DNA of 64,000 nt from an uncultured virus (IMG/VR IMGVR_UViG_3300046536_000804). Its lineage: Duplodnaviria; Heunggongvirae; Uroviricota; Caudoviricetes. Made by a program: the position numbers and the translations under genes. The stretch is taken from the IMG/VR virus record IMGVR_UViG_3300046536_000804. One strand, 5' to 3'. Shown here in pieces: positions 350 to 62,240 of this stretch (positions are counted from its first letter, which is position 1; each line of letters begins with the position of its first letter). The notes beneath the pieces were generated by a model. The model saw only the letters and a list, made by a program, of their open reading frames with translations. It ran no database searches and was not told where the DNA came from.

Positions 350-476
350 CGGCAAGTTCAGAATCTGAACTAGCTATGCTGCACCACGATATACTGACAC
401 ACTTTCGAGGCTAATTTAGCACAAATGGACCCAATGACTTTTGTCGTCTTTGACCCGACGCAAAGGGTTAGTGAAT

Positions 477-549
477 CGCCCTCGCTCGGATTCGAACCGA
501 GGTCTCAACCGTTTAGAGCGGTAGTGCGATGCCGCTTCGCCACGAGGGC
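477..549 (-). tRNA. tRNA with CUA anticodon (amber-suppressor-like)
   Basis: Minus strand folds as GCCCTCG-TG-GCGA/TCGC D arm-ACCG[CTCTAAA]CGGT-CTCGG[TTCGAAT]CCGAG-CGAGGGC-G; anticodon CTA. Confidence 0.85.
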
Positions 550-1140
550 TTTATTCCTTCCGCAGAATGTTTCTGTCTGCGAGTTGCAGTTTGGGCACAG
601 CAACCTCAGGTTGCTTACGAGACCATTGCGACGATTTCCGTCTATGTGATCCAAGATAAGTACAAGCGGTTTGCCGAACCAAGACGGTGAATTACCGCAT
701 TCGTAGCAGTTGTTGTTCAGGATGCCTTCGGCGATCAGTCTTCGTTTTCTACCGCCACCGATGGGGTGGTCACTGTCTGCAACTAACACCTCCGCCCACG
801 GCGTACGTTGTCTGATTCCTGACGTGCCGTGACTTAACCCTTTCCAGTGGCTGGTATCAAGACCGTGTCTCGCCACTTCGCGTTTCACCCAGCTATAGGC
901 AGAGCCTACAATAGCTCGATTCATCTTGCGAAGGACTGCTGATATGCTCAAGCTCTCTGCAACAGCCTGTTTGAACGCGTCAACGTCGTATCCTTGCCGT
1001 CGGTTACTTACTAGATGGTCAAGGCGGTGTTTCTTGATCCACCAGCGAACAGTTGATCGCGAACAATCAAAATAATCGGCGATCTCCTGTAGCGATTCGT
1101 CGTGGATCGTCAAACGCTGCTCGAGAATATTTTTGTCCAT
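505..1140 (-). CDS. HNH homing endonuclease with N-terminal HTH
   Basis: CYECG...LDHIDGNRRNGLVSNLRLLCPNCNSQT HNH/zinc motifs; N-terminal SLQEIADYFDCSRSTVRWW HTH; likely start ATG at 1140; 3' end overlaps the CUA tRNA. Confidence 0.9.
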   Translation of the reverse strand: MDKNILEQRLTIHDESLQEIADYFDCSRSTVRWWIKKHRLDHLVSNRRQGYDVDAFKQAVAESLSISAVLRKMNRAIVGSAYSWVKREVARHGLDTSHWKGLSHGTSGIRQRTPWAEVLVADSDHPIGGGRKRRLIAEGILNNNCYECGNSPSWFGKPLVLILDHIDGNRRNGLVSNLRLLCPNCNSQTETFCGRNKALVAKRHRTTALNG

Positions 1141-1167
1141 ACATACTATCGTAGCACAACAGGAGTG

Positions 1168-1207
1168 GCGGAGCAATTCGCTGCTCTGCCAATTGAGCTA
1201 CGGCCGC
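1168..1207 (-). pseudogene. Truncated tRNA 5' half
   Basis: GCGGCCG-TA-GCTC-AATTGGCA-GAGC-A-GCGAA...; canonical acceptor 5' strand and D arm, but no T arm or 3' acceptor strand before the HNH gene. Confidence 0.6.
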
Positions 1208-1213
1208 TTACAT

Positions 1214-5288: not shown

Positions 5289-5331
5289 AATAACTCCTCT
5301 TCCTTTGATAGGTAATTGTACGCATGTTAAT

Positions 5332-5357
5332 ATGCCGCAATTTGGTCGATAATTTAG
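5332..5357 (-). promoter_or_regulatory. Putative phage promoter motif CTAAATT-N12-GCGGCAT (also 394-419, 32125-32150, 40981-41006, 41069-41094, 45565-45590)
   Basis: Six intergenic copies with the same 26-bp span, each upstream of minus-strand genes. Confidence 0.6.
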
Positions 5358-6358: not shown

Positions 6359-6420
6359 CGTTGGCTCCTTCGTTGCACTCTTTCACCCGAGGCAGGGGGG
6401 TTATTATTGTGGCAACTCGA

Positions 6421-7630: not shown

Positions 7631-7707
7631 GCTGTTCTCCGTTGCACACTGTTACCCGGTGCAATGGGTTGTAGTCGAATCAGTATCACCCGGTTCGCGA
7701 CAGTGGG

Positions 7708-9033
7708 TTACTTCATCCGCAGCACTTCACGTGCGTAGTTGAGATAGTCAACCTGAGCCTTTTGGTCGGTGGCCTGCTTGGAGTTCTTCGCGGGACGGAT
7801 GCGACGGAACTGGCCGTTCTCCATGATCTTCGCGACGGAGTAGGCACACTTGTAGAGGCCTTCCATCTCTTCGCGGGTCATGGCCGAGCCAGCCTTCTCT
7901 TCGGGCGCCGGCGGGGCGCCTTCGCCACCACCCCCGGCTTCCGGAGGAGCACCCTCACCACCGCCACCCATCTGGGCCGCGACGGCTTCCAGGGCCTCCA
8001 TCAGCTTCTCCGGCGGGATGCCGGCTTCGATCATGGAGTTGGCCATTTCGTTGATCGCTTGGATGCCTTCATCGGCACCGCCACCACCGGGAGCGCCACC
8101 TTCACCGCCCGGAGGCATTCCGCCGCCACCGGCCATCGGATCGGCCCCTGGAGGCATGCCACCGCCGCCGCCCATCTCGGGAGGCATTCCGCCGCCACCA
8201 CCCGGAGGCATTTCACCGCCACCGCCGGCGAGAGCCGGAGGCAGTTGCTGGCCATCGGGCGGCATCATTTGCTGTTCTTGCTCGGCGTTCTTGTAGAGCA
8301 GTTCGCCGACGAGATCGGCCGCGTCGCAGGCTTCTTTGATGATGCTGGCGACCAGATCGTTGACGGCCGCCTCTTTGGTCGAGTTGGCTGCCGCGAGATC
8401 GGCTAGCGCGTAGCCGGCAGCGGCTGCTTCGGTCGGGGTAGGAGCAGGAGTCGTCTTTGCGGCGGGATCAGCAGCAGCTTTCGCATTGGTGAACGTCTGA
8501 CCGTCGCCGAGGCGAGCCAGAAGGTGTTCGGTCTTCGCGATGCTGAGGTTGTACAAAGCATCGAACGACATGGAGGCGAGCTTCGTGGACGAATACTTTT
8601 CGCCCATATCCTCACCGTCGAGCGGGGCGCTGGTGCCGGGATCTTCCTTGGTGCCCTTGAAGGCATTCTCCGCGGACGGGTCTTCGCCGGTGGCGGATTG
8701 ATGCAGGCCGATGTTCGGGCTGTCGTGTTCGTTGGTGGCGTCCGACAGGCTATTCGAGACGGCACCGGGGGAGTTGGCAACGTCGCCTTCGACGTCCTTC
8801 TCGTTCTCGTTGGCCCGGGCGCCGAAGCTCGGCTTCTGGGTGTTGCCATCCAGCTTGCCGGTCGGGCTGGCCGTCGGGCCTTTGACGCTACCGGGGTCGC
8901 CGCCGTCGGAGCCTTTCAGCTCGCTGGCCTTCTTCGCGTTCGCCTGCTTGACGACATCCTCATTGATCGAGTCGATCAAGTTGCCGATGTTGCCGAGCAC
9001 TGACTTTTCGCGGATCATTGTGGCTTGGCTCAT
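7708..9033 (-). CDS. Putative scaffolding protein with GGGGMPP low-complexity repeats
   Basis: Acidic, disorder-prone composition; lies between protease and capsid genes; start MSQAT at 9033 with RBS. Confidence 0.55.
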   Translation of the reverse strand: MSQATMIREKSVLGNIGNLIDSINEDVVKQANAKKASELKGSDGGDPGSVKGPTASPTGKLDGNTQKPSFGARANENEKDVEGDVANSPGAVSNSLSDATNEHDSPNIGLHQSATGEDPSAENAFKGTKEDPGTSAPLDGEDMGEKYSSTKLASMSFDALYNLSIAKTEHLLARLGDGQTFTNAKAAADPAAKTTPAPTPTEAAAAGYALADLAAANSTKEAAVNDLVASIIKEACDAADLVGELLYKNAEQEQQMMPPDGQQLPPALAGGGGEMPPGGGGGMPPEMGGGGGMPPGADPMAGGGGMPPGGEGGAPGGGGADEGIQAINEMANSMIEAGIPPEKLMEALEAVAAQMGGGGEGAPPEAGGGGEGAPPAPEEKAGSAMTREEMEGLYKCAYSVAKIMENGQFRRIRPAKNSKQATDQKAQVDYLNYAREVLRMK

Positions 9034-13500: not shown

Positions 13501-14864
13501 TCTCGGCCATTATCGTCCCAGCACTTCTCATCGCCGGTGGGTTTGTCACTGGCGATCGTAAAGCCGAAAGTGCTCACCATCTTGACAATACTGTTGACGA
13601 TGGCGCCCTGTGTTTCAGCACCCGCTCCGTTGGCTTTCTCCAGCTCTTCCATTTTCTGGTAAGTAGCGAAGATCAGACCTTGATTATAAGCAACCGGAAC
13701 AGTCTGCGCGGCCACCAGAGCTTTGTTCTCGAGGGAGAGCTTGAACAGATCCCGAGCCATCGAACTACCCTGATCGTACGATGTCATGCGGGTCGGCTGG
13801 CCATCGCGTTTGATGAACCGGTCGAGGAACAGCGGGCCACGCAGCAGACCGAGCAGCTTCCACAGCAGATCGTACTTACGATCGGTCAGCCCTGCATGGA
13901 TCGAAGCGCCGAGCACTTTGTTCAACATGTAGAGCCAGTGCTTTTGCTTGCCGGCCACATCGAAGAACAGATTGGCATAACAGTAAATGCTCTCGGGATG
14001 CTCCCCGATACGAGTGGAGATCTCCTTGATGGTGGCCTCGGCACAGAGATATGCCTCGATTGACCATCGTGTATCACTCATCTCGTCACTGTAGAACTCA
14101 AACGCCGAATACACGCCAGGATAGCGTTGACGCAGCCGTTCGAAGGCAGGATGACTGTCGCAGCGGTCCCACTCATTCTGAAACCGATACGCCATCGACA
14201 CCCAGGAATCGTCACGTCCTCGACGCGAATACCTCTTCTGTTCGCGAAGCCAGCGAGCACGCTCCCAGCGCCAGTTGGGTGGCAGCATGCGATTGTGCGA
14301 ACTGGGCAGGATCTTCAAGGACGGAACCGACATCACTTTCTCCTGATAGCGTTGCTGACATCATTGACACGATGCAGAGGGTTAGCGAGCGGTCTCCACG
14401 CGAGCCTGTAGGAAGGCATACCAATTCGTTGCAGTAATCGCACCAGTCGGCTTGATGACCAAATAGAGGAACCCCTCACTGTCACCGCCATCCAGGTTGC
14501 GGTAAGCAAGGCCGATCTCATTCGTGGTAATGAGGACTGCCGCACCGGCATTTGCAGTGAGAGCTGCGGTCTGCGGCGACTGTACTCGATAAGGCGTCAT
14601 ATCAACAGCCGGTGCGTCGGTCGTCGCATAGGCAACGCCAGGCGGATATGGAATCTGTGACGTCAGCAGCTCAACCGTGAAAGCGACCGATGTGCCGCCA
14701 CCGCCGGCCGCCGGTTGTTGCATCACCACCAAACGGGTCAAGTAGCCAGCCGGCTTGAAGGGAATCTGGAAAGACCCCATCTTGGCGCTCGGAACCAAGA
14801 GTACGGGCCTCGCCTTATAGAGCCCGGTCTGGTCCGTGTAGGTGGCTGTGTAGATATCAGGCAT
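10573..14864 (-). other. Putative virion/late hypothetical genes (10830-11738, 11739-13151, 13172-13381 membrane, 13410-14336, 14382-14864)
   Basis: Long contiguous co-oriented ORFs with abutting stops and starts; several are rich in K-x-A motifs. Confidence 0.65.
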
Positions 14865-20871: not shown

Positions 20872-21238
20872 AGTCCGCTGGTCACTTTCTTTGACCCGAA
20901 GTGAAGGGTTAACACAGGCATATTTTCGACGTTCTTTGACCCGAACGAGAGGGTTACTGATATCCGGATATCAACGGCCTTCCGGTTTCTTCAGGGTCTT
21001 CACGATCACCGTCTTGTTGATCCCGTGATCCTGCAACTGGCTGAAGAAGTCTTCGTCACCAATGTGGAAGGTGGTAACGTGCCCGGGTTGTGGTGAGACC
21101 GAGAACGAAACGGGGTTGCCGAAGTCGTCCAGCACCAGCACCCGTGTTGCTATCACACGGATGGGCCGATTCAGGTGGTCATGGATTTCAACCAGCATCA
21201 GGAGTAATCCGCTTTCGTCTTTCACCCGACGAAGAGGG

Positions 21239-32001: not shown

Positions 32002-32068
32002 ACTTCCTCCTGTAAGAGTAGAAACGAAAACAGCCAGCAACACGCTGGCTGTCCTGAATGGCCTACCC

Positions 32069-32098
32069 GTCGCACTGTATAAGCCCAGGCGAAGGCTT
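32069..32098. repeat. Solitary degenerate copy of the CRISPR-like repeat
   Basis: GTCGCACTG-TATA-AGCCCAGGCGAAGGCTT versus array repeat GTCGCACTG-ATTG-AGCCCAGGCGAAGGCTT. Confidence 0.75.
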
Positions 32099-32153
32099 AA
32101 AAGCCTAAAGGCACCCAAGCAATAATGCCGCAAAAAGCTAAAAAATTGAGGCG

Positions 32154-39449: not shown

Positions 39450-39524
39450 CGTGCAGTCCTTGGTAGTTGCTCTCTTTGACCCGAGGCAGAGGGTAAATAT
39501 AGCATACCAGCACTTGCAATGGCT

Positions 39525-41118: not shown

Positions 41119-41227
41119 GTCGCACTGATTGAGCCCAGGCGAAGGCTTTGCAAGGGTGCTTTTGCCGGTACTACCAGCGCCATGGTAAAGGTCGCACTGA
41201 TTGAGCCCAGGCGAAGGCTTTGCAAGG
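41119..41227. CRISPR. CRISPR-like mini-array: two identical 37-bp repeats and one 35-bp spacer
   Basis: GTCGCACTGATTGAGCCCAGGCGAAGGCTTTGCAAGG at 41119-41155 and 41191-41227; spacer 41156-41190; AT-rich leader-like region about 41228-41340; no cas gene in the window. Confidence 0.7.
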
Positions 41228-42460: not shown

Positions 42461-42518
42461 GAGGCTATTGTATCGTAACGCCGTGTCTCGTTTGCACTCA
42501 TTGACCCGAGGCAAAGGG

Positions 42519-45449: not shown

Positions 45450-45633
45450 AACATTCCTCCTCTGCTGCTTACGTTGCGGCAGTCTTCGTCAATGACCCGA
45501 CGAGAAGGGTTGTTCCGAATCGTCAGCACGCGGAACGCCCGATAGCTGTGATTCTCGCATAATGATGCGGCGTTTTTCGCGTTAATTTAGGGGTGAGAGC
45601 CAGTAGTCGCGATCATTGACCCGACCGGAAGGG

Positions 45634-45978
45634 TTATTGCTGCAACGTCGATGCCAATGAGGGGAAGCCGGATGCCTTAGAGAGGGTCTCCACGATAGGG
45701 GGAGCCTGGGGGCGGCGCCGTAACTTGACTGTGGGCAAGGCAGTACGTGGAATGTGAATTTTGAAGCCCGATCGATGACTTAATCCGACGATCCCTTTCT
45801 CCTCAGAATCGATCTCGAAGTTGTGCGGTTTGGCGACAATCATTCGGCGAAGGATTTCGTGCTTTGCCGGGTATCGGCGGCGGTCGCTTTCGCTCTTGGC
45901 CTTTAGCAACGACGCAACATCGGAGTCCTTGTGCGGCGCCGAGGCGATCTTCACAGCAAGTTCGTCGATAAAGCTCAT
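45634..45978 (-). CDS. Hypothetical protein
   Basis: 114 aa, coupled to the helicase gene; stop overlaps a pseudoknot element. Confidence 0.65.
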   Translation of the reverse strand: MSFIDELAVKIASAPHKDSDVASLLKAKSESDRRRYPAKHEILRRMIVAKPHNFEIDSEEKGIVGLSHRSGFKIHIPRTALPTVKLRRRPQAPPIVETLSKASGFPSLASTLQQ

Positions 45979-47444: not shown

Positions 47445-47446
47445 AT

Positions 47447-47564
47447 CGTCTTTCACCCGACGTTGAGGGTTAGCGCGAGCAAAGAGAGTCTCGATCTTTC
47501 ACCCGATCGGAAGGGCTACTGACGTGGCCTACCGCTCACTTCATTGACCCGAAGGAGAGGGTTG
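47447..47564 (-). repeat. Three tandem pseudoknot elements at 46-nt period
   Basis: Copies begin at 47447, 47493 and 47539, separated by unique linkers. Confidence 0.85.
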
Positions 47565-48665
47565 AGGATACAGCCGGCGGAACTCTTCACGAGCCTGCAC
47601 AGCAAACTCGGGGTGCTGCATTTTCAAAAGCAACTGCGGCTTCTTCGGCGGCATCTCCCAGGCCGGCGGTGGGTTCACGTCAGCCGTCGTCTGGAAGTAA
47701 CGCAGTCGCTCGGCCGGGTTGTACTGCCGAATACCCTGATATCGACCACGAGCATCGATCGCCGCGTGCAGCGGCTCCGGACCGGGCGACATCTGGAACA
47801 GCGCCCGCTGGGTCGGATCGGTTGGCGGCACACGCCACGGCAATCGAGTCGTCGAGGGGATCGGCTCGACCGGCTTGTTCAGATCGGCCTGGTTGCGTCG
47901 GTTGAGAAAATGCACACCGGCGCCGAGAGCAGCGGCACCAAGGCCGATACCGCCAAGACGTTTGACGATACGCGGGATGGCTGCCTTCTTGATGCGAACA
48001 ACGAGCGTTCCAGCATCTTTGACCCGATGAGGAGGGTTAGTTGCCGGATACTCGCGGCCGGCGTCAACCAACGAACGAATCCCCGACCCGACGTGCAGCA
48101 CTCGATTGGCTGCTTCGCTGGCCTCCAGGCCACCTCGGTGGCCGAGGAGGCCTTGCTGGTGCATCGTCTTGTAGACCTGGCCGACGTCGTGGGCCGACAT
48201 CCCGGAGTCGTTGGGCATCTGCCGGAAGACGGTCTGGGCCAGGGAGGAGTTCTCCAGAGGCGTTCGTTCTGGATGTGATTGAGAAATCGCGGCGGCCAGA
48301 GACGCTGCCGAGCCTCGATTGCCATGGACCTGGTCCCAGAGATTCGGTGCCATGGTCATCATGTACGGAGCCAGTTGCTTGATGTTCTGGCTGCCTGCTT
48401 CGATCGCCTGCTCGAACTGTGGACCGCGGGGCATCCCAGACGTCGAGACGAGCCCGCGGAGCAGTTGTTTGTAGGTTTCCCGATCGGCGTCAGCCGCATC
48501 GGCAATGGTGTCCCACTGGTTCTCGCGGCCGGCTTGCAGCTTGGCGGAGTCAAAGAGGTTCAGGCCAGGTGCGCGGACCAGACCTGAACCGCGGAGGAAG
48601 TTGCGGACCGGTGGAGCAGCGGCGAGCTGCTGCAGGGTCTCACGATCGTAGAAGGTGGCAGGCAT
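47541..48665 (-). CDS. Hypothetical protein with internal and terminal pseudoknot elements
   Basis: 374 aa; the element is translated as NPPHRVKDA internally and QPSPSGQ* at the end. Confidence 0.7.
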   Translation of the reverse strand: MPATFYDRETLQQLAAAPPVRNFLRGSGLVRAPGLNLFDSAKLQAGRENQWDTIADAADADRETYKQLLRGLVSTSGMPRGPQFEQAIEAGSQNIKQLAPYMMTMAPNLWDQVHGNRGSAASLAAAISQSHPERTPLENSSLAQTVFRQMPNDSGMSAHDVGQVYKTMHQQGLLGHRGGLEASEAANRVLHVGSGIRSLVDAGREYPATNPPHRVKDAGTLVVRIKKAAIPRIVKRLGGIGLGAAALGAGVHFLNRRNQADLNKPVEPIPSTTRLPWRVPPTDPTQRALFQMSPGPEPLHAAIDARGRYQGIRQYNPAERLRYFQTTADVNPPPAWEMPPKKPQLLLKMQHPEFAVQAREEFRRLYPQPSPSGQ

Positions 48666-49101
48666 AACGCTATTCTACCGCCAGGACGAGGTTTCTTCGT
48701 CTTTGACCCGACGAGAAGGGATTTTTTGGTCATCGATAAATTGTTGAATCAACCTGGTCATTATCTCCAGTGATTCAACCTTTAACAGACCGATGCGTCG
48801 GTAGTGCTCGAGCACGTACGGATCTACGAGAACTGACTCTGTCTTGCCCATGCTGCTACCGCCGCGAATGATGTGTGGACTTGTCATGTCTTCATCCTTT
48901 TACCCGATGAGAAGGGTTAACCTCCGCCGATAAACGGTCCCTGGCACTCACCGCCGCCGACGCGATATCGCCAGCACTCGGTGCAAGTTTGCACGTCGGA
49001 CGACGAGTCGCGTTCGTGCCCGCTCTCGAAGCACTGGTGCCAGGTGTCTTTTTTACAGTGCTGGCAATACCGCTCTTCGTTGAAGTATCGCGGTTCCTTA
49101 C

Positions 49102-49599
49102 TCATGATTCCACTCCTCGAGCAATCAAGCCGATCAGGAACAAAACCAGCAGGTGGAACGTGTTGTCCACCACGATGATCGACCATGGCGCCAAGGCGCC
49201 TGTCGCAAAAGCTTCCTGCCCGGAGACCTTCATCATCCACCACTTCGCAAGACCAAAACGGTCCACCGGCCAGTGCAGGACGAAGCACGCCACGACGCCC
49301 CACCACGGCATCCACCAAAATGCACACGCCCAGACGGCGGCTGTGTACAAGAGGCAGTGCACAGTGCAGGCCACATGACCGGTCTGACTAGCCATGATCT
49401 TCTCTCGCCATATCGACGATTCGGTTGTTTCTTTGCGGATGTTACCGCCACTGTCGCCGACAAATAGTTGGCTGTCGTCAAGATACGAAAGACCTGGCTT
49501 GTGCCAGGTCACAGGGTTCGTCTTGTTCTTTGCGAGCCAATCATTCTGAAAAATGTAGTCGCCGAGCAGGTGCCCGACGAGTAGTCCAAACGATTCCAT
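49102..49599 (-). CDS. DUF3307-like membrane protein
   Basis: HLLGDYIFQNDWLAxxK, HCLLY, HWxVD and DNTFH motifs. Confidence 0.75.
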   Translation of the reverse strand: MESFGLLVGHLLGDYIFQNDWLAKNKTNPVTWHKPGLSYLDDSQLFVGDSGGNIRKETTESSIWREKIMASQTGHVACTVHCLLYTAAVWACAFWWMPWWGVVACFVLHWPVDRFGLAKWWMMKVSGQEAFATGALAPWSIIVVDNTFHLLVLFLIGLIARGVES

Positions 49600-49643
49600 A
49601 TAGTCATTTCCCGGCGTTGACCTCTTTCACCCGAGGCAAAGGG

Positions 49644-50021
49644 TTAGATCGGCTTCTCGCCGACGCCGTCCCATGGTAACGCATACTTCTCCGCGATCAT
49701 CTCTGTGGCATAATCCTTACCGTCCGGAAGGACGATCGACGCCAACCACCGGCCGTACTTGTCGATGCCACGCGTCTTGGCAGGACTGACCGTAACCACG
49801 GTGCCGACCGGCACCATTTCAATGGCTCTGGCTTTCGATGCAAGACCACGCGTCTTCTCGTCAGGATTCAGGCTGTGGACCTCCGGAGCGTTCATGCCGA
49901 ACACACGGATGGTTCGGAAGAGCGTGATGTGGAAGCCGAGATCGATGAGATCAAGGTCCGCGGCGACGTGACACGTGTCACCGTCTAGCCAATCGATGAT
50001 CTTGCAAGCATAGGTAGCCAT
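49644..50021 (-). CDS. Thermonuclease (SNase) family nuclease
   Basis: DGDT, IRVFGMNAPE and DKYGRWLA motifs. Confidence 0.9.
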   Translation of the reverse strand: MATYACKIIDWLDGDTCHVAADLDLIDLGFHITLFRTIRVFGMNAPEVHSLNPDEKTRGLASKARAIEMVPVGTVVTVSPAKTRGIDKYGRWLASIVLPDGKDYATEMIAEKYALPWDGVGEKPI

Positions 50022-50064
50022 ATTTCACACCATTGCGCTGCCGTCTTTGACCCGACGTAGAGGG

Positions 50065-52656
50065 TTAAGCTCTGCCTGAGCACATGCCGCCGATCCGTTC
50101 TTCGTCACCACAGTAATGACACCGCGGATGGCCATTCTTGAAGGTCCAGATCGCCGCCTTGAACTTGTGCGGCTTCTGCCCTACCGTCTTGGCTCGTTCG
50201 CGGATCTCTGCGGACTCGTCCTCATAGGAGGGATCAGTAGCTTTGGCGTCTTTGACCCGACGAAAAGGGTTAAACCTGTCGAACAACGATGGCGTCTCGC
50301 GACGGGCCTCGTTGATCAGGCGTTGGCGCCAGGCAGTCACGTCCTGCTGATGCTGCTTACGCTGAGCATTGTGACCCAACCGACTCGCGACGATCCCACC
50401 TGCGGCACCGAGCGTACCGGCAAGGTAGCCGAACGGCGATGCTCGAACCACCCGTGGCAGTACCCGATTGGCTCGATTCAAACCGGACATGACCTTGGCG
50501 GCGGCATTTTCAGCACCACCAGCACCTGAAACGACCCTCTTCGGCAAGACCCAGCGGAACCGCTTGATCTTCTTCGCCAACGCGGCGATCGAGTCGGCCT
50601 GCGACTGCAGCGGCGGCATCGCCCGGTTCAGCGATGTATGTAACCGATCTGCTGCTGCGCCGCTCGCCAGGCTGCCAGCACTCAGGCCCAGGCCGCCGAC
50701 CGTGGCGATGTCGCCAGCGGTGCCGAGAGCCGTACTGGGCTTCTCGGGATAGAAATCTGGAGCGGTGGCTGCGATGCTTGCGTCTTTGACCCGACGAAGA
50801 GGGTCGGCACCGACAATCGACACGGTCTTCTCGGTAACTGGCTTCGAGGTGTCACCGTCCTTGAGCCATTGCTTGAACTGATCGACCGTCATCGACTCCA
50901 TTGAACCTAAACCCTTCCAGCCGGAAGGGTAATGGCTCAAGTACAGCTTCTTGGCGTCTTCAGCAGAGACGGTGCCGAGGACGCCCTTGTGTTCGTCCGG
51001 TTTTCCCGAAGATGGGTCGATCTGATTGATGATAAAGACGACCTCGCTGTCCAGATTGTCACCGACGAACACGTCCACCGCGTCGCCGTCCATTAAGGAC
51101 TTCGTGCGTTTGACATAGCCGTAGTTGGCCGTCATCAGGTTCTTCCAGGGCTTGCCATCCTTGCCCACCCCTCGGCGATACTGGCCCTTGGCTGTCTCGA
51201 TCGAAATCGGGATGCCTTTGTAGTAGATGTGGCCCTTTTTGTAGTTCCCGGCCTGCTGTTGCGGCACCGTCGGCTTCGGGTGCACCCGATTCATCGCCAG
51301 GCGCAGCAACGACGGTGTGACGTGCTGGGCGGTCTTTGCGACCGAGATCGCGCTGTCGTCATTGACCCGACGAAGAGGGTTGATGCTTTTGAGCCAGTCC
51401 AGAGGTTGTTGATACCACGGGACGCCTAGCGGCTGCTGCGGTCTTTCACCCGACGCAGAGGGTTCAGATACCGGGATATCCGCTGATGCCTGTACAGGCG
51501 TAGACACAGGTGGTGCTGGTGGGCGAGGAGCCTGCTGGTGCTTCCTGGCATTGGCGGCCCTTCTCGCTGCGATTAGGCCCACCAGGTCGTCCGCCATGCC
51601 GGCAATCATCAAATTCGGTCCGGCGGCCGCCTTGAACGACTGGGGCATGTCTTTCTTGGTGCGGGAGATCTTCTTCCACTTGCCTGAGCGGTTGGTCGTC
51701 GGAGTGGCCGACTCGTTGTGGTAGATGACATGCTCTTCGCCGACCCGTTTCTGTGCGTAGAGGCCAATCCGCTTGCCGACCGCCTCTTCGCCCCAGTCCA
51801 TGATGTCGATGATGACGATCTTCGGCAAGCCGTCGTGGACATAGACCTCAATCCCGGCCATGTCGCCCGCTGGGAGCTTATCGACGAAGGCTTGCAGATA
51901 GTCCTCCAGTGACGGCCGTCCGCCTAAGGCTGCCTCTTTAACCCGAGGAGCAGGGTTAGCGCGTTCGTCGATGTTGCGGGCGACCGGCCGATTGGACTGA
52001 CTACAATCGGCGCCGCACTCCGGGCAGTTGTAACAATCCGCGGTATCGAAGCCGCTATTGCAGGCGTGGCATGACCAGAGGTGATCGCCGTTGGCGTAGT
52101 AGTTGTCCATCGACGTCTTGGTCGTATCGTTGTCGTGCAGGACGCCCGCCTTACGCAGGGCGACCGTGATGTGATGGTCGTAACCGTTGCGGAGCGGCTC
52201 AAGACCGTACGACTTCCGCAACTGACGCAGGGCGGGCGAATCGACGGTGACGTAGTGGATCATGGAGACGTCCGGCCATCCGTTCGGCTTGACCGTCTTC
52301 ATGTCGCCCAGGGAATAGGTGAAGTGGTGACCACGCTCACTGATGGCGTCCGGCCCGCCGACTTCTTTGACCTCTTCGGGCGACATCACGGTGATATGCG
52401 AATTGAGCCGGCCGTTATGCAGTGGAAGCTCAAGCCCTGGTTCCGACAGGGCGTCGAACATCCCGCGGACCATACTGTTCGGCACCTTCAGGAGCAGCCA
52501 GCCTGAGTCGGACAACTGGAGCTCGCCCGATAGGGAATAGGCCTTGGTCGGCGGGTTGGCGTCGGCCTCCTTGCAGAAGAGGCCGTGGGCTCGGCCGAGA
52601 TGATAGTCGGTGCGGCATTGCTCAACGAAGAAGGACGGCTGCAGAAGGATCGTCAT
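50065..52656 (-). CDS. Polyvalent protein: 2H phosphoesterase + Zn finger + InPase-like domain + hydrophobic segment + Zn finger
   Basis: Two HxT motifs (SHITV, HHITV); CHAC..CPEC; GNYKKGH..ISIE..GKPW..YGY..DGDAVDVF inorganic-pyrophosphatase-like domain; C-terminal CHYC. Confidence 0.75.
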   Translation of the reverse strand: MTILLQPSFFVEQCRTDYHLGRAHGLFCKEADANPPTKAYSLSGELQLSDSGWLLLKVPNSMVRGMFDALSEPGLELPLHNGRLNSHITVMSPEEVKEVGGPDAISERGHHFTYSLGDMKTVKPNGWPDVSMIHYVTVDSPALRQLRKSYGLEPLRNGYDHHITVALRKAGVLHDNDTTKTSMDNYYANGDHLWSCHACNSGFDTADCYNCPECGADCSQSNRPVARNIDERANPAPRVKEAALGGRPSLEDYLQAFVDKLPAGDMAGIEVYVHDGLPKIVIIDIMDWGEEAVGKRIGLYAQKRVGEEHVIYHNESATPTTNRSGKWKKISRTKKDMPQSFKAAAGPNLMIAGMADDLVGLIAARRAANARKHQQAPRPPAPPVSTPVQASADIPVSEPSASGERPQQPLGVPWYQQPLDWLKSINPLRRVNDDSAISVAKTAQHVTPSLLRLAMNRVHPKPTVPQQQAGNYKKGHIYYKGIPISIETAKGQYRRGVGKDGKPWKNLMTANYGYVKRTKSLMDGDAVDVFVGDNLDSEVVFIINQIDPSSGKPDEHKGVLGTVSAEDAKKLYLSHYPSGWKGLGSMESMTVDQFKQWLKDGDTSKPVTEKTVSIVGADPLRRVKDASIAATAPDFYPEKPSTALGTAGDIATVGGLGLSAGSLASGAAADRLHTSLNRAMPPLQSQADSIAALAKKIKRFRWVLPKRVVSGAGGAENAAAKVMSGLNRANRVLPRVVRASPFGYLAGTLGAAGGIVASRLGHNAQRKQHQQDVTAWRQRLINEARRETPSLFDRFNPFRRVKDAKATDPSYEDESAEIRERAKTVGQKPHKFKAAIWTFKNGHPRCHYCGDEERIGGMCSGRA

Positions 52657-52736
52657 GGTGGACCTCAAGTTGTGACAATCCTTATTTTACAGATCCTGCA
52701 CAGCACTGGACGGCATCTTTCACCCGATGCGTAGGG

Positions 52737-54336
52737 TTAAGGCTGCTGACGGACGAAGAAGGCAACGATCTCAGTGACAGTCAGCAGAATAGCCAGACCC
52801 CACCGGCCCGCTACCGTTAGCTTAATCATCGCTTCGTCTACCGCCTCCTTCATTGCATCCGTCTTCATCACTACATGTTGTTCCTCGTCTTCAACCTTTG
52901 GCGGCAATCTTCCCCAGGTGCTGCAAATCGCTACACCAAACAGGATGCCGACAAAAATGTGGGCCAGATCTTTGAAGATATCTTCGTGTGAGATCTTGCC
53001 CTCAACAGGGACTATAAACCGAGCAATACCGAAGCCAACGGCACCGGTGAAGAGAATGAAGTTGAGCATGATGATCTCCACGGATTACTTGACTCACTAA
53101 CCCGAGCCAGGTGGTTAAACCGCACGCCCAGCTCGACGTCGTCGGCATTTGGCCAAACATCGGTTTTCTCGGTCGCGGGTCAAATGGCTGCGGCACGAGG
53201 CTGGGCCGTGCGGGATTGGAAGGTGGGCGGCGTGCGACCTCTATACACCAAAGGTATGACCATTCCCGGGACTCGAACCCAGTTTCCTCCGCCCATAATT
53301 ACGCATGAGGCATGTGTGTTCGACGAATCTCGGCTATCTCCCGCTGAACGCTGTCGTAGAGAAGCGGGTCAGAATCTTTGATCCTGGCCAACTCCGCCGG
53401 CCGTTGCTCGGGAGGCATCTTGAAAATCTTGTTGACGAGGTTCTGGGCAACCGCCACTCGGCTCTTGAGCATGCTGTAGGCGGTGTTCAAAACGAACAAG
53501 CTGATGAGGATGACCCACAACTGCCATATCTGTGTTTCGGTAATACCGAGAAGACTGTACTCGGTTGATACGAGAGCGGCGCCGAAGAGGAAGCCACCCC
53601 ACATGCTGGAAAGATCTCGACAGACGGCCTTATAACTCGGCCAGGCGTCGACCTCGACAACGGACCGCACGACGAAGATGATGAGCGTGATCGTGACAAG
53701 AGTGAGGATTAACATGAGTTGGTCCAACTATTCGTTCCTGCACAGGGGCGATACAAAACATCCGATCGCCCACCGATTTCTCGGTGGGCGATCGGCATCC
53801 TTCAAATCAGAAAACAGCTAATCAGGCGGCTTTTAATGCCGAATCCTGAGCACTGTACGACCACCGAACAAACCCGCACGACCTGTGGAGCAAGAACCGG
53901 CATTCGCCGATGCTCCTCCATGCGACGATCGAAGTCGACTGAACAGGCCTGCCTTGCCACAGCCGCCCGCGGCGCTGGATTGGGTTGTAATGTTTACCGA
54001 GGTGCTTCGCGTCATCGTCCTACCGACCCCGCACGCGCCGTTGGCACAACCTCCGGCTGCTTGCAGCAATGTCGGGCTGGTATCGGCCCAGGTCGGATTG
54101 ATGATGTTCGAATTCGCGGATTCACGGACCTTCTGCGGCGCCGAAGAGAGAGAGCTTTCCCGGAACTGACTGAGATCCGCCATTGCGATAAAGGTATCGT
54201 TGCTGTTCAGGACGAGCTGAGGCTCGTCCATCGGCGGCGGGAGAAGCTTGTCGAGCGGTTGTGCATGCAAGTTTGTCGCGAATACCAGGCTGAGCACCAG
54301 GCCCAGCAAGAGACCAGAGAAAGGGGGACGAATCAT
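52737..54336 (-). other. Membrane/secreted hypothetical genes (52737-53081, 53299-53727, 53833-54336)
   Basis: Hydrophobic helices or signal-peptide-like N termini. Confidence 0.6.
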
Positions 54337-55585: not shown

Positions 55586-56351
55586 CACAGGTTACTTTTC
55601 GACAACTTCTCTCGCCGCTCTCAAAGCGGTGAAGGCTTGCCGAATTGTCTCAGCCCTGGCGTTCCAGGTCTGCAGGATCGCCCGATAGTTGTCGGCAGCG
55701 ACCCGATTTGCTTCATCGCCGGACTGGTCATACGTGTAGCCGTTGACATAGCCCTTTTCATCGGTGATGGGGGTCAGATGACCCCCAAGACCGGCAGCAG
55801 GCGGCATTGGCACATCGCCGATGCACTGCAGCAACGCATCCAACCAGGCAGCGGGCGAATCGTCATACAACGGCACCAGTGTCTTGTCTGGTCCTGGTAA
55901 GTAAGCGATCGCCTCGCTTCGGTGGATTCCGTTGATGATTTCGATTGGCATGAGACTACCACCCTCACCACGTTGTCGTCTTTTACCCGACGCAAAGGGT
56001 TCGCCTGCTTAGACCGGCGAGGTCATCATGACATCCAGGTTAGCATCGGAGACGCCGATGAGCGTGTCGTAGGCCGCACTGACGACCAGGTCACGGTCCT
56101 TGTTCGCCGGGACCAGGCCAGCTTCCTTGAGACGAACGGTAAGAGCGAACTTGGCAGCCTCCGGGTGCCTGCGGGCGAAGCGTTTCGCCGCATTGCCCGA
56201 TGTGCAACCACCTTGAAGCATCTTGAGGATAAAGGCGACGATGTCGGCCCACGGCAAGGAGCCAGCGTTGCTGCCGCCAGCAGCGGTGTACTTTTGCGCC
56301 ATCTTTGCCGCAGCATCGTTACTGTTCATGACTGGCATAGGACGGTCCCTT

Positions 56352-57757: not shown

Positions 57758-57817
57758 GGAACAATCTCCTCAACAGGATAGGTCTGATCGGTTCGATCAT
57801 TAACCGGATCGACACGG

Positions 57818-60800
57818 TTATTTTGCTGGAAGGAACTTCGACACGTAAGTCTTCACCGAGTTGAGATCAGTGATAGCCACGGCGCCGATCAAGTTGTTCG
57901 ATGCATCGGTCAAGATAACTGCTGGTGAGGTAATCCCAGCAAACTTCGGCCTGGCATCCAACGCAGCCTGCGTGGTGATTCCATAGACGTTGACTCCGTT
58001 CGCCTTGAGCCAGTCTCGGAAACCCTGGTCTTCGGTGACCAGTACCGTCTTCGGTGTTGGCCACAACACTAAAAAGGTCAGCGAGGCTGCTTTGGCATTA
58101 GGAACCGGAGGATTCGGTGGCGGATTTGGCGGATTTGGCAAATTCTCCAACGCTGTCAGCCGCTTGTCGGTCTCGACGCGAAATGCATCCAGCGTGGTCT
58201 TGATCGCCGCCACCGATTTCCGCAGGCTCGCCAGTTGCGTCGCAATATCGTCATCCGGTGTAGGCGATATAGGTGATTTGCTCAGCACCGCGGTAACAGT
58301 ATCCAGAGCAGCAACAAGACTCAGAATCGACTTACCGGTTAACGGCGAATTGGCTTGCTTCTTGGCCTCCGCTACGGAGGCCGTTAAAGATTCAAGCTGA
58401 TCACTGGTAATGCCGCCAGCCTTCACGGTCTCCGTGAGGGCATTCAGCTTTGCTTGAATGCTGGCGACGTCGGTTTTCAGCTTCTCAATGTCAGAAGAAG
58501 GTCCCGGTGGAGGAGGTTGCGGCTGCGGATCTGGAACCACCGGAGGAGCTGGTTTCGGCTGATCGCCGACAAGGACAACGCAGATCTTGTTGGCCGCTGG
58601 GAAGAAAATACCATATTCCGTCCGCTTGGCTTTCCCGTCGGCACCGGGCTGGATCTCGATCAGTAGATTGAAGTGCTTCGGATCTTCAGAATGCTCGCGA
58701 CGGATGATGATCCCGTCAGCCGGATAAGCAAGCCAGTTGAACTGGGCAGGCGAGTTTTCCACAGTGAGCGATGTGATACGCCCGACGGACGCTTTGACAG
58801 ATTCGGGGATCTTGACGGGCATGGTCGGCGTCACTGGCTGGGCGCCCAGTGAGGTGACGACGCTAAACAGTACGAAGGTAAACAGGTGTTTCATGGGTAG
58901 CTTTCATTGTTTGATTTGCCGGCGAGATTGCGCTAAAAGCCTTTGACGGCGTTCGATGCCGTTGAGAATCTCGCCTGCGATTGCCTCATCCTCGGTCCAC
59001 TTGCCGGCTGCATCAGGAGCCGCTTTGACTGCGGCAATTGCTTCTTCCACCCATTGAGTGGCTTCCTTCGCGATCTTGGACAACTTACCGGGCGTGACGA
59101 TAGAGTCTATCGCGGCGGCCAGACCGCCGCCAGGGGGAACTGCGAGTTGTGCCATCTTGGTGGCGATGAGACGCTTGACGTTTGGACCCATAAAAGCCAC
59201 GGAATCCGGCTGACTCTTTCACCCGAGCCGCAGGGTTAGATGTTGCGTCACCTGCACGGGTAGTGTTGCTGCGATGCAGCCAAGGCGCCACACCGTTTGC
59301 AGACGCCACCTTCCTCCTGCGGGCCGTCCGGCGGGACGGCAACCCACTGATGTTTCCTGGTCAGGTCTCGGAACACGCCGAAGACAGTCTCCAGGACAAC
59401 CATGCCGATGATGACGAGGGCCGCGAACACAAACGCGACGAAGATGCCGATCATACCGACAGTAATCTCGAACACGTTAAATCTCCTACCGGATGGCGGA
59501 CTCTTTCACCCGAGCCGCAGGGTCTGTTGATATCCGGATATTGAACTTATTTGGCGTACTTCTGAGCCAGCACAGCAAGTTCTGGCGCCGAGGCGAACGC
59601 GATGACCTCCAGCACCTTGCCGGTGTTATCGAGGACAGCCGCGCACGGCAGCGGGATGTTCTTGCCGCCGAACGGATAGACATCTCCGGCCTGATAGGTT
59701 TTCGCGTCCACGGTGACCACAAACCTGACCAGCATCGGGTCGGCGGCGACCTTCTTGGCATCCAGGGCGGCTGTCGTGTAGAGGATCAGCTTGGTCGTGG
59801 CGAGCGACGGCGGTGTCACGACCGGCGAGGGGCTGACGGGGCCAGGCCCGACGACAGGCGACTTGTCGGCCGGCACCACGATCGGGATCGGCGGCGGAGG
59901 AGGTGGCGGCGGCTTCATGAAGTACGTGCCGACGCCGCCTAGCAGCATCCCGACGAGGATCGAGACCAGCGGCTGGTACTTCTCGGGAATGTACGGCTTG
60001 GCCATGTTGGCAAGCGCGAGGATCGCAGACGTGATCTCCGCCTGCTTGAGGGGGGCGTCTGGCGAATCGGGCGGGATGTTCCGCAGATCTGTGGTCGCTG
60101 CGTGAGCTCGATTGACAATGGATTGGAGGTTGTCAGCCATCGTTCAAATCTCCTAGTTGACACCTTTGACCCGGTGCAAGGGGTTGGTAGAGCCGGCCAT
60201 CCCAACCCAGCGGAACGACCGCGGGAGGCAATGAAGAACGACTTCCTCAGGAGGTTTGGCCGGCTCGGTCTACCAACGTGTCGTTGGACACGAGATAAAT
60301 GGATCACCGTCCTTTCCTGGTTGATGTGACTGAACATCTTACCAATTCATTTTACCCGGCTACGTCCCCAGTGGGGGAGGTAGGCCTGGCGGCATTCCGT
60401 TATTGCCGCGATGAGCTTCTTCGTACTGACGGGCAAAGAGAACTACATCAGCCATCGTCGCTGTAATACCAGCCTGACGACGTGTTGTCATCGTACGGAT
60501 GAGAAGATCAGGATCGCTCGGCCACTCGACCGCAAAGAATTGCCGCAGCTCGGCTCGTTCTTGCTCGCAGTTTTCGTGGCTTTCTGTCAGACCTTTGATA
60601 TGTAGCTCGAGTTGCTCGACACGAAGCATCAACTCCCCCTGACGTCGTTTGACGATCAGGAGGTTGTTGAGGTAAGTGGATATTGCGGTAACGATGGCAG
60701 TCAGAAAGGCAAAGAGGGCGACCCAGAATCCGCTGCCCAAACTCGTCAAAATCTCCTGCATCTCGCAGCCTCCGATGCATAACTGAGTGGCGACAACAGA

Positions 60801-61510
60801 GACCGCGGCTGGGCCAACCGCGGTTCTTGGGATCTCAGATGACAGTCGGATTACGGGGCGGGCGGAGCCGGAGGGGCGGGCGGCGTCGGCGTGTTGGCCG
60901 CAACGGCTGCAGCCAGGGCGGCGTCGGACGCCTTCAGCGAGTCGACTTCGGCTTGCACCGGGGCGAGCTCTGCGGCGGTGGCGCCGTTGAGCAGCGCGGC
61001 ATCGACGGCGGCTTGCATACGCGCCGCGAAACCGTTGATCAGGGCGATGGCGGAATCGACCACACCGGTGATCGAGGTGACCTCGTTGGCGAGGTCGGTA
61101 AGGATGGGACTGGACATGACACATCTCCTTGGGTAAGTGGACATTACAGACACACGGGTTGACCCCGTGCATCTGTAAACTTTACCAAAAAGGTGTCACA
61201 GTTACACGGGTTGATCCCGCAATTCTCAGGACTTATCACTTGCGATCGCTTGCTCCAACTGAACTCGGTGATCGTGCAAAGCGTCGCGCAGTTTCAACAG
61301 CAAGGTATCGTCTTTTCTGCCCTTGATTAGCTCGTCGACCTCCTGCTTGGTAAGACCATCCAGCTTGACGTCAAGCCGAATCAGCTCGTCAAGACCGTCA
61401 AGTTTCTTCTCGATCCGATCAAGTCTTGCGACGATCTCGTTAAGTTTGAGAAGAAGTTTCACGATATCCTCCACGGAGTATTGGGGATGGGCGTCCCCAA
61501 ATAATACCAT
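57818..61510 (-). other. Secreted/membrane/coiled-coil hypothetical genes (57818-58894, 58904-59200, 59248-59475, 59547-60140, 60360-60761, 60851-61117, 61226-61510)
   Basis: Signal peptides, Pro-rich linkers and transmembrane-plus-coiled-coil composition; possibly a lysis/envelope module. Confidence 0.6.
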
Positions 61511-62240
61511 ACCTCACCCGGTGGCGATAGACGGCAATCGTAGTTGGCATCATTTACCCGATGCAAAGGGGTCGTCGGTCGGCGACGGTCCGAGGTTACT
61601 CGGACCGTCCGGCCCGTAAAGCTCGTCATGATACTCGTCGCACCGCCGCTTGAACTCGGGCGACGGGGGTAAACACGGCCAGGCTTCAATGCTTGGAAGT
61701 TCGATGCCGAATGCCTCGGCAAGTTCCTTGCGGTTCTCGTGGCACAGACCATGACCTGCTTCACGAAGGAACCTATCCACTGCAGCTTGAAGTGGATCTG
61801 GCCTAGCCATGGCCTCCTGGATCACAACCACCGCAAATCGATAGGCGGTTGCCATGCCGTCGTGATGAAGGCTGTGAAACGTGTCATCATTCTTCGCCAG
61901 CGACTGAAAACGTACGGCCCTCGCCGAAAGTTCGGCGAGGGCTCCTGAAAGACGCGGGTCGATAATCGGCATAAATATTCCTTGCTTGCGTCTTTGACCC
62001 GACGAAGAGGGTCGTTGGTTAATGATCTCGTCCGTTCGGATAGTGGGGCTTCTCCTTGAACTTTGCAGTGCTATCCGACGGGACGACACGGTAGGAAGTG
62101 CGAGACCCGCGAACGCCTTTGCGTTGCGAGTCTCGCAGCCGTTTTGCATAGCCGAGAGCTTTCGCTCGTTCACCAGTAAAGGCGACGTGCTCTTTCCCTC
62201 GGCTGGTTTTGATGACATCGTAGAGCACGAGTCTCCTCAG

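Follow-up and report, generated by a model that had tools for sequence, protein, structure and literature searches.

We analysed a 64,000-nucleotide stretch of DNA from an uncultured virus of the class Caudoviricetes (IMG/VR record IMGVR_UViG_3300046536_000804; hereafter the window), in which the original prediction had described a family of at least 37 co-oriented miniature pseudoknots. All long open reading frames (ORFs) in the window lie on the minus strand, and a greedy set of ORFs covers 91% of it. Among them are the two genes of a multisubunit RNA polymerase (RNAP), whose nearest cultured homologues, in Vibrio phages and Salmonella phage Arash, are ~27-30% identical, and the gene of a polyvalent-type protein of 867 residues. 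An 8-kb portion of the window had no Megablast match among 50,697 phage records. The window is part of a contig of 159,470 bp; a search of sequencing runs listed one DNA run with this sequence, a rhizosphere metagenome that may be its source, and no RNA run. Dispersed between and within these genes is a repeat of about 31 nt, and we find that the repeat family is real, strongly structured, uncatalogued and restricted to one phage lineage.

In its simplest form, ACCC-N8-GGGT, the repeat occurs 29 times in the window against 0.76 expected, with a maximum of three in 100 shuffles. A covariance model (R1), built from 30 in-register copies and run unfiltered on both strands, gave 33 matches at E <= 2.5e-4, all 33 on the minus strand. 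Plus-strand matches to R1 numbered four among the 49 listed, each with E >= 3.6. With six weaker but recognisable variants, the parsed copies total 39 (Table 1), which agrees with the predicted minimum, and the single direction claimed for the family holds for every strong match. The 15 copies for which positions and arm pairs had been given were each recovered as described. The interval from 21.3 to 38.5 kb had been thought empty and nearly is, with one variant copy (AGCC/GGCT) at 32068-32100. A reported longer-looped variant at 7676-7710 gave no convincing parse and was left uncounted; the real member nearby lies at 7640-7672 and lacks the bulge described below. The minus strand at 7676-7715 has a TAACCC start and a GGGT with no convincing second helix, and may be a decayed copy.

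Every copy was folded and the best-scoring parse of the 39 was taken, which gave the sense-strand layout (Y)UA-ACCC-U-N7-GGGU-NAAA-N4-(1-nt bulge)-N3-C, with a length of ~31 nt (31-33). As an H-type pseudoknot, this would comprise a 4-bp stem 1 (ACCC/GGGU), a first loop (L1) of one U, a 7-bp stem 2 with a bulge, and a third loop (L3) of sequence NAAA. L1 is a single U in 34 of the 39 copies, L3 has four nucleotides in 37, and the bulge is exactly one nucleotide in 35, its base not being conserved. Information content is limited to positions -3 to +28, where YUAACCCU and UCGGGUNAAAGA are nearly fixed; no conservation was found upstream of -3 or beyond +28, neither a -35-like block nor a T-run. 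The core of the original description, a co-oriented element defined by two interleaved helices, is therefore retained, but its geometry is not: the last three nucleotides of what had been drawn as a 4-nt loop pair with the three nucleotides after the bulge, which extends the variable stem from 4 to 7 bp and shortens L1 to 1 nt.

Stem 2 carries the evidence for selection on structure. Across the 39 copies, 249 of 273 stem cells are paired (245 Watson-Crick and 4 G.U; 91%), even though there are 27 different 5' arms, and 18 copies are free of mismatches. In the 30 copies underlying R1, 91% of cells likewise pair and six of the seven pairs vary on both sides. Their covariation score is 0.414, compared with 0.117 +/- 0.018 in column shuffles, and none of 500 shuffles reached the observed value, bearing out the covariation claimed for this stem. 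When the 3' partners were slid by one to three columns, pairing dropped to 31-41%. The copies are paralogues and hence not independent samples for covariation; nevertheless, so many different yet complementary arms cannot have been inherited from one ancestor. We conclude that the structure of stem 2 is under selection. The most recurrent stem, CTTCGTC, is found in five copies.

Stem 1 behaves differently. It is invariant as ACCC/GGGU in 31 of 39 copies, and covariation statistics are silent on it because it varies so little. The compensatory change to ACCG/CGGT that had been noted at 57795 is present (copy 57789-57821), and we add a second, independent event, AGCC/GGCU, in three copies (41190-41222, 41118-41150 and 32068-32100; variant B). 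One further copy has a G.U pair. Compared with the copy at 42490-42522, variant B has both partners of three pairs changed, of which stem 1 holds one and stem 2 the other two, with pairing kept each time. Evaluated singly, the two hairpins are weak and about equally stable (mean -4.15 and -4.75 kcal/mol, 32 copies). As each helix alone is marginal, a stable fold would require either both helices, and thus the pseudoknot, or a bound protein. These sequence patterns suggest that both helices form together.

We found no sign of the element in catalogues of known families, as had been predicted. In Rfam 15, only tRNAs reach the gathering score in the 64 kb, and at E <= 5 over 47400-52800, an interval with 13 copies, the sole match is a chance-level one to Fibrobacter-1 that lies outside all copies. 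No described equivalent was found in the literature at the level of titles and abstracts. The same polymerase is encoded by thousands of metagenomic relatives (43-67% identity), many with intein/LAGLIDADG insertions. A search of IMG/VR with a single RNAP protein found no relative, and 80 relative loci (1.69 Mb) were gathered by means of a 17-sequence RNAP alignment. R1 gave one match in these loci, at E = 6, one in the five closest whole contigs, at E = 0.85, and none in phage Arash. A pseudoknot descriptor scan of a complete 194-kb relative and the 80 loci did not find the element, and k-mer, dyad and descriptor scans of the relatives returned only coding repeats and an unrelated AT-rich palindrome. 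Judged from these sequences, relatives with the same virion-type RNAP lack the element. The palindrome, of the ACTTAA...TTAAGT type, is present in ~10 copies in the complete relative (193,694 bp), where the pseudoknot family is absent. A general 14-base pattern retrieved 76 loci from IMG/VR, 75 with a single match and one with two adjacent matches; we took these for chance, as no contig held dispersed copies. A 20-base CGTC variant retrieved no locus from GTDB searched with one genome per species.

Table 1. Copies of the element and other features of the window, and single copies in four metagenome contigs.
Feature	Position	Strand	R1 score (bits)	Remarks
Copy	439-471	minus	49.1	5 nt past tRNA(CUA) 3' end; then promoter-like motif-2
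Copy	1587-1619	minus	43.9	3' end abuts 5' end of tRNA 1469-1587
Copy, L1 of 2 nt	6371-6403	minus	28.0	
Variant copy, no bulge, longer L3	7640-7672	minus	9.3	
Copy	14353-14385	minus	42.8	TAA = stop of 160-aa ORF
Copy, tandem with 20925-20957	20880-20912	minus	42.0	10 nt before RNAP beta'-C ATG
Copy, tandem, 45-nt period	20925-20957	minus	35.3	
Copy	21210-21242	minus	48.8	TAA = stop of 289-aa ORF
Variant B (AGCC/GGCT), closing pair G-C	32068-32100	minus	8.5	Then terminator-like hairpin + T-run
Copy	38547-38579	minus	43.2	TAA = stop of 124-aa ORF; ATG 12 nt downstream
Copy	39465-39497	minus	38.5	Downstream of intrinsic terminator and CTATAT -10-like box; ATG 17 nt downstream
Copy	40824-40856	minus	37.2	
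Variant B	41118-41150	minus	11.0	AGCC alternatively pairs with downstream GGCT; T-rich tract after
Variant B	41190-41222	minus	10.4	
Copy	42490-42522	minus	37.3	TGA overlapping first A = stop of 194-aa ORF
Copy in 5' untranslated region	45481-45513	minus	41.0	~40 nt after promoter-like motif-2; ATG 33 nt downstream
Copy	45605-45637	minus	38.2	TAA = stop of 114-aa ORF; then promoter-like motif-2
Copy, third of tandem trio	47441-47473	minus	36.7	Holds likely ATG of SNF2 helicase gene
Copy, second of trio, GCCC/GGGT (stem-1 G.U)	47487-47519	minus	36.8	
Copy, first of trio	47533-47565	minus	42.7	TGA stop of 374-aa ORF inside
Copy in frame within 374-aa ORF	48008-48040	minus	43.8	
Copy, TCCC/GGGT terminal mismatch	48692-48724	minus	40.6	
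Copy, L3 of 5 nt	48887-48920	minus	36.4	TAA = stop of 136-aa ORF; SD-like AAGGA and next ATG overlap 3' half
Copy	49615-49647	minus	48.5	TAA = stop of SNase-like gene
Copy	50036-50068	minus	45.7	TAA = stop of 867-aa polyvalent protein gene
Copy in frame within 867-aa ORF	50241-50273	minus	44.6	NPFRRVKD
Copy in frame within 867-aa ORF	50775-50807	minus	45.9	DPLRRVKD; just after InPase domain
Copy in frame within 867-aa ORF	51351-51383	minus	43.2	NPLRRVND; ~10 aa before InPase module
Copy in frame within 867-aa ORF	51434-51466	minus	41.9	'Stop-codon' frame, GAA for TAA
Copy in frame within 867-aa ORF	51927-51959	minus	44.6	NPAPRVKE
Copy	52708-52740	minus	44.0	TAA = stop of 114-aa ORF
Weak copy, ACCA/GGGT, L3 = TAGT	53086-53118	minus	13.9	
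Copy	55971-56003	minus	45.3	ATG 21 nt downstream
Copy, compensatory stem 1 ACCG/CGGT	57789-57821	minus	18.8	TAA = stop of 358-aa ORF
Copy	59207-59239	minus	39.6	
Copy	59494-59526	minus	38.5	SD + GTG 20 nt downstream
Copy	60155-60187	minus	41.3	SD + ATG 16 nt downstream
Copy, L1 of 2 nt	61542-61574	minus	35.8	TGA stop of 222-aa ORF inside
Copy	61983-62015	minus	45.0	SD + ATG 12 nt downstream
Promoter-like motif-2	380-419	minus		Sequence motif
Promoter-like motif-2	5320-5357	minus		Sequence motif
Promoter-like motif-2	40970-41006	minus		Sequence motif
Promoter-like motif-2, near-copy	~41060-41097	minus		Sequence motif
Promoter-like motif-2	45553-45590	minus		Sequence motif
RNAP beta'-C	18508-20871	minus		787 aa
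RNAP fused beta + beta'-N	32154-36596	minus		1480 aa
Polyvalent-type protein	50065-52668	minus		867 aa; 2H-SAK and InPase domains, Cys-rich end segments
Metagenome copy	L077:1269-1301			Contig GC 61-64%
Metagenome copy	L078:1643-1675			Contig GC 61-64%
Metagenome copy	L079:1268-1300	minus		Contig GC 61-64%
Metagenome copy	L080:1393-1425	minus		Contig GC 61-64%

The position of the copies relative to genes indicates that the element sits within mRNA. At 10 of the 39, the first A of ACCC is also the last base of the stop codon (nine TAA, one TGA) that closes an upstream ORF, counting ORFs of 50 aa or longer; two more hold a stop codon inside the element, and translation runs in frame through six, five of these belonging to the 867-aa ORF and the sixth to a 374-aa ORF. 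The 3' end of the majority of copies lies 10-35 nt ahead of a Shine-Dalgarno (SD)-like sequence and a start codon. Two copies contain the start codon itself (47441-47473 and 48887-48920), the latter along with an SD-like AAGGA. Two others border tRNA genes, one (439-471) beginning just past a tRNA 3' end and one (1587-1619) directly abutting a tRNA 5' end. Where copies stand in tandem, as in the trio at 47.4-47.6 kb and the pair at 20.9 kb, their stems and spacers are unrelated, showing that they are not simple duplications.

The five copies inside the 867-aa ORF are located in linkers and score 41.9-45.9 bits, equal to intergenic copies. Four of them share a codon phase and encode N/D-P-x-x-R-V-K/N-D/E, while the fifth is in the 'stop-codon' phase. 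The modules of this protein are found in other combinations in other phages. Its homologues cover single modules only: a 599-aa homologue starts with the InPase module ~10 residues past the end point of the phage element, and a 701-aa homologue starts with the 2H-SAK module. The in-ORF copies thus look like retained former gene boundaries or module junctions, and could offer a lead on how mosaic anti-defence polyvalent proteins are assembled.

Such placement is also what might be expected of a selfish mini-element or recombination module, either a REP/RPE-like hairpin spread by a Y1 transposase or an attC-like integrase, or a boundary for short-homology shuffling of the kind proposed for PeSL cassettes. 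Some 40 copies in one lineage and none in relatives would fit this idea, as would the six in-frame copies, five of them in the same codon phase, in linkers between modules that are separate in other phages. The conserved 5' (Y)TA could then be an insertion target that matches stop codons by chance, and some stems do recur (CTTCGTC, above). We nevertheless regard a selfish or recombinational origin as doubtful. No transposase or Y1/HUH domain was found among the 83 ORFs of the window, which covers 64 of the 159 kb of its contig, in comparisons with PHROGs and Pfam, nor was an integrase, and the copies have neither target-site duplications nor terminal inverted repeats. REP/REPIN palindromes, which RAYT mobilises, come with a cognate Y1 transposase, cluster around a master sequence and insert extragenically or in frame. 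The 27 arms, 91% paired, argue against a recent burst of this type and suggest that the fold has been selected over a long time. A single module comparison could be made, confined to single-module homologues; in it the element-encoded peptide aligns to residues of the homologue, with no clean insertion. Integron attC sites are 57-141 bp long, with R''/L''-L'/R' boxes (RYYYAAC/GTTRRRY), extrahelical bases and an IntI integrase nearby; at 31-33 nt, the element is far below this size and has no GTTRRRY or other attC core box, and shares with attC only a bulge at a fixed position. PeSL cassettes of T4-type phages consist of a promoter and a hairpin placed between accessory genes. In cluster M mycobacteriophages, the intergenic repeats CR1-CR4 include stem-loops (PMC7953290). 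The element has in common with both that short conserved repeats are spread among many accessory genes of one lineage and are linked to gene insertions. Both differ from it in being sequence repeats or promoter-hairpin units, and neither is known to include a pseudoknot with freely covarying stems.

The window has other transcription signals of its own. Classical terminators, each a hairpin and a T-run, are present at 53795, 39568, 39996, 45197 and also 5.4 kb. A promoter-like motif (motif-2; Table 1) reads CTAAATTA-N16-(A/C)TA-type box on the minus strand, with the boxes ATACTA, ATATTA, CATTAT and GTATAT; its exact octamer occurs four times against 0.29 expected, and it looks like the ordinary promoter class of the phage. 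At 5.4 kb the order is a 12-bp hairpin with a T10 terminator, motif-2, SD and ATG. Pseudoknots precede promoter-like sites at 45605-45637 and 439-471. They follow such sites, in what is presumably the 5' untranslated region (UTR), at 45481-45513 and, after a terminator and a CTATAT box, at 39465-39497. As the phage has both its own terminators and a separate promoter-like motif, the element would be needed for neither job, and it is not tied to one end of the transcription unit. The element is also unlike a sigma-70-type promoter, in which the -35 and -10 hexamers are separated by 16-18 bp: only ~6 bp separate its conserved blocks, and conservation is absent upstream of -3. A promoter scan found 5 sites where 7.2 were expected, none of them in the sense orientation and common to copies.

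These signals bear directly on whether the element itself terminates or attenuates transcription by the RNAP of the phage or of the host. Many copies begin at or just past stop codons, two fill the slot upstream of motif-2 that a textbook terminator fills at 5.4 kb, and variant B at 41118-41150 can be extended to a long hairpin with a T-rich tract. That copy is the exception: over the 35 copies inspected, there is no T enrichment from +29 to +44, as an intrinsic terminator would have. Several start codons and a tRNA gene lie so close behind copies (0-12 nt) that no new promoter would fit in between; ORFs enclose six copies; strong classical terminators stand elsewhere in the window; and ~40 full stops in one co-directional array would silence most of the genes. 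We consider termination very improbable. Of the functions put forward in the original prediction, mRNA processing or stability is the one we favour, and a plain terminator, for want of a T-run and with genes directly after the copies, is the one that fares worst.

The reading we favour, tentatively, is that the element is a cis-acting, sense-strand RNA that punctuates the phage mRNA and shields its ends. The knots would be roadblocks that delimit and protect the ends of cistron or tRNA-precursor segments within long same-strand transcripts. In a transcript of 58% GC, the A/U-rich (Y)UAA just upstream is a plausible entry site for an endonuclease; after a cut there, stem 1 would pair the very first bases and leave no single-stranded 5' end. 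Where a tRNA follows, RNase P would cut just after the knot, which would then cap the 3' end. An end tucked in this way should be degraded poorly by 5'-end-dependent RNase E, by RNase J or other 5'-3' exonucleases and by exonucleases that work 3'-5', and tandem copies may reinforce the barrier. We infer this end-shielding or processing mechanism, and the folding of RNA rather than DNA, from patterns in the sequence.

A number of observations count against punctuation and end-shielding by a sense-strand RNA. As had been noted originally, wobbles occur on both strands: the 30 copies have 4 G.T against 7 C.A/A.C cells, which does not favour the sense strand. The nested folding energy is -7.56 kcal/mol for the minus strand and -8.06 kcal/mol for the plus strand, compared with -4.9 +/- 2.45 in shuffles. 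Because all genes of the window are on one strand, the shared direction of the copies may go with transcription just as well as with replication or packaging. Stem 1 has an uncompensated mismatch in three copies, and the support for it consists of the two compensatory events. The 867-aa ORF contains well-kept copies with no SD or start codon behind them, and constitutive cleavage at these would destroy that mRNA. Finally, copies lie on both sides of promoter-like sites, and a role purely as 5' cap or purely as 3' cap would leave some of them unexplained.

The original prediction left the choice of folding strand open, and wobbles and energies indeed do not decide it; it is loop length that narrows the choice, by reasoning from classical rules and not as the output of a tool. 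In the textbook layout of an H-type pseudoknot, a 1-nt L1 crosses the deep groove of stem 2 and an A-rich L3 crosses the shallow groove of stem 1. A 7-bp stem 2 with a 1-nt L1 and a 4-nt, A-rich L3 should therefore close into a knot on the sense strand only, as on the opposite strand a lone A would need to bridge the shallow groove of a helix 7 bp long. When perfect pairing and an A-rich L3 were demanded, a descriptor scan gave 26 minus-strand hits, each a member of the family, and 12 plus-strand hits. Eleven of the latter use CGTC/GACG as the first helix, and we take them as a partial re-reading of the CGTC copies. Overall, the functional form is probably the sense-strand RNA.

The absence of a strand preference in wobble count and folding energy would, on the other hand, suit a folded-DNA promoter, extruded from supercoiled DNA and used by the virion-type multisubunit RNAP to start transcription just after it, as with the hairpins of the N4 virion RNAP. 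A promoter of the N4 type has a 5-7-bp stem and a 3-nt loop on the template strand, where the virion RNAP recognises it, and each genome has three. The 7 bp of stem 2 fit this stem length, whereas the loop of the phage element has 8 nt and takes part in a second, interleaved helix. The location of copies 10-35 nt upstream of start codons, the tRNA that begins at the 3' edge of one copy, the tandem copies and the restriction to one lineage would all be compatible with promoters. The phage does encode a two-gene RNAP, and in phage Arash the RNAP subunits and a sigma factor are abundant virion proteins, with the homologues of the window RNAP among the most abundant (PMC10585845). However, transcription from the 3' edge could not serve the two start codons and one SD that lie inside elements, the five copies in one ORF have no translation signals behind them, and one copy lies ~40 nt downstream of a promoter-like site, in what would then be a 5' UTR. 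The phage also has a separate, ordinary promoter-like motif, and a 1-nt L1 with an A-rich L3 is a hallmark of RNA pseudoknots. These points make a DNA promoter quite improbable in our view; were it correct, this would be the first case of a multisubunit virion RNA polymerase with a structured promoter.

If the functional form is RNA, the element could alternatively be an operator for a trans-acting factor, with an RNA-binding protein or sequence-specific nuclease reading UAACCCU, CGGGUNAAAGA and the fixed bulge and so switching the translation or decay of a class of genes. T4 RegA and RegB, which act on many early mRNAs, provide an analogy. Conserved loops and bulge position with free stems are typical of protein-recognised hairpins, and most copies stand directly 5' of an SD, two having the SD or start codon inside. 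Tandem, non-identical arrays precede the helicase and RNAP beta' genes, and a lineage-specific element that relatives lack is what a co-evolving protein-RNA pair would leave. Against this, no RNA-binding protein or RegB-like nuclease was recognised among the 83 ORFs, most of which are unannotated; six copies lie inside ORFs, far from start codons; and ACCC and GGGU, if paired with each other, would not be free for protein contact. We find an operator rather unlikely. A preQ1-like riboswitch, a CRISPR-repeat mimic, a frameshift or readthrough signal and a tRNA-like RNase P substrate were also considered and dropped, by reasoning from copy number, variable stems, a lack of slippery sites and the lack of a free 3' end.

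Structures with the role that punctuation and end-shielding would assign to the element are known between bacterial and phage cistrons. T7 RNase III sites, REP hairpins in operons and 5' stem-loops such as that of ompA are intercistronic structures that process or stabilise mRNA. Like the phage element, these structured RNAs recur in one orientation between cistrons; they determine where segments end and how stable these are. Their form is that of a plain long hairpin, which RNase III recognises or which blocks 3' exonucleases, whereas the element is a ~31-nt pseudoknot with conserved loops and is far denser (39 copies in 64 kb).

A closer likeness in architecture is to the exonuclease-resistant RNAs (xrRNAs) of eukaryotic RNA viruses. 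Pseudoknots of the coremin type stall a 5'-3' exonuclease as a mechanical roadblock, and the coremin motif xrRNA-C and its Watson-Crick variant xrRNA-WCC are intergenic, in UTRs or sometimes coding, and sometimes repeated (PMC10520033, PMC10321173). The placement of the phage element, intergenic or coding and sometimes repeated, is similar. They resemble it further in that the first helix has 4 bp, L1 is 1 nt, the spacer is A-rich and the loop pairs with the spacer in H-type fashion (PMC10321173). Coremin requires a YGAD or YGNNAD loop and a conserved spacer ending in CUAC, both of which the phage element is without: its helix-1 loop is a U and seven variable nucleotides, its conserved letters are GGGUNAAAGA, and CUAC is absent. 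Coremin also requires a second hairpin (hp2) directly downstream, whereas the phage element has no conserved sequence or common fold beyond +28; its three outer pairs after the bulge might stand in for hp2. The second helix is of 3 bp or non-canonical in coremin and of 7 bp, bulged, in the phage. Lastly, coremin blocks Xrn1, an enzyme that bacteria lack. By analogy, the phage element may act as xrRNAs do, but it is no coremin motif.

A second resemblance is to the 5' domain of SorX (RF02784). SorX is a single-copy, trans-acting, Hfq-dependent small RNA of alphaproteobacteria with the seed ACCUCCCUGUUGGA and a terminator (PMC9438474). Its 75-nt form has a 5' end, at position 1 of the Rfam model, that maps to an RNase E cleavage site (PMC6238624). 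The Rfam consensus begins A-U-CCC-UC, followed by a 7-bp stem with the loop CGGGUCAU. Both SorX and the phage element have A-(U/A)-CCC, a linker of 1-2 nt, a covarying 7-bp stem and an 8-nt loop that holds GGGUCA. The 5' CCC of SorX could also pair with the GGG of the loop, which would give the same mini-pseudoknot; the structure line in Rfam has no CCC/GGG pairing and no pseudoknot annotated. The SorX layout with covarying stems recurs in 66 Rhodobacterales loci that we collected with a search pattern that itself fixes CCC and GGGTCA. SorX differs in its bulge-free stem, its loop CGGGUCAU and its L1 of 2 nt, and the phage copies differ in having neither the seed ACCUCCCUGUUGGA nor a Rho-independent terminator after the hairpin. 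The SorX model, with a cut-off of 46.6 bits, reported none of the phage copies at E <= 5, and R1 found one match in the 66 SorX loci, at 17.5 bits. These comparisons suggest that the relation is a resemblance of one module, not membership. Three genomes searched have 6-7 SorX-like matches each, which share the seed and mostly not the 5' hairpin.

Copies of the R1 type were also found by a metagenome scan with the 20-base CGTC variant, which retrieved four homologous contigs (Table 1). Each has a single copy that scores 40.4 bits and has the same bulge. The copy lies in a conserved non-coding stretch and is followed by a SorX-like seed and a hairpin; the stretch has a weak SorX score (18 bits against the 46.6 cut-off). 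The surrounding 220 nt are 96% conserved, and the contigs overall are 88-99% identical. No ORF of the four contigs had a Pfam or PHROG hit, and a 414-aa ORF in contig L079 shows weak similarity to one protein, a hypothetical one, of Rhodobacter phage RcZahn. Across 151 alphaproteobacterial genomes, R1 gave one weak hit (28.4 bits, with a T-rich L3), which we judged to be chance.

Taking the xrRNA and SorX analogies together, one may speculate further that the element is a bacterial-virus counterpart of the xrRNAs of eukaryotic viruses, although we regard this full scenario as unlikely. The 5' ends of RNase E fragments would be tucked into the knot, so that RNase J and RNase E are blocked from the 5' side and exonucleases from the 3' side, and some 40 uses in 64 kb would yield stable messages and tRNA precursors. 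The module might have been borrowed from, or mimic, a host SorX-type 5' domain, and the in-phase copies might serve as domain linkers of an injected polyvalent protein. Should the fold act in end-shielding as we propose, few self-contained modules for RNA stability or insulation known in bacteria would be smaller; it would be a portable 31-nt part for operon engineering, and would suggest that the roadblock strategy of flavivirus and plant-virus xrRNAs exists in phages. The likeness to the SorX 5' domain likewise provides a testable idea for the stability of the 5' end that RNase E makes there.

The first two copies in the window flank an unusual tRNA cluster on the minus strand (440-1620), arranged around an HNH endonuclease gene (505-1176). 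It includes, at 477-549, a tRNA(CUA) with an anticodon of the amber-suppressor type, a tRNA called by ARAGORN at 1214-1287 with an 8-nt anticodon loop 'ttaa', and a partial tRNA at 1301-1348. The remaining tRNA match, at 1469-1587, spans 119 nt and must hold an insertion or intron.

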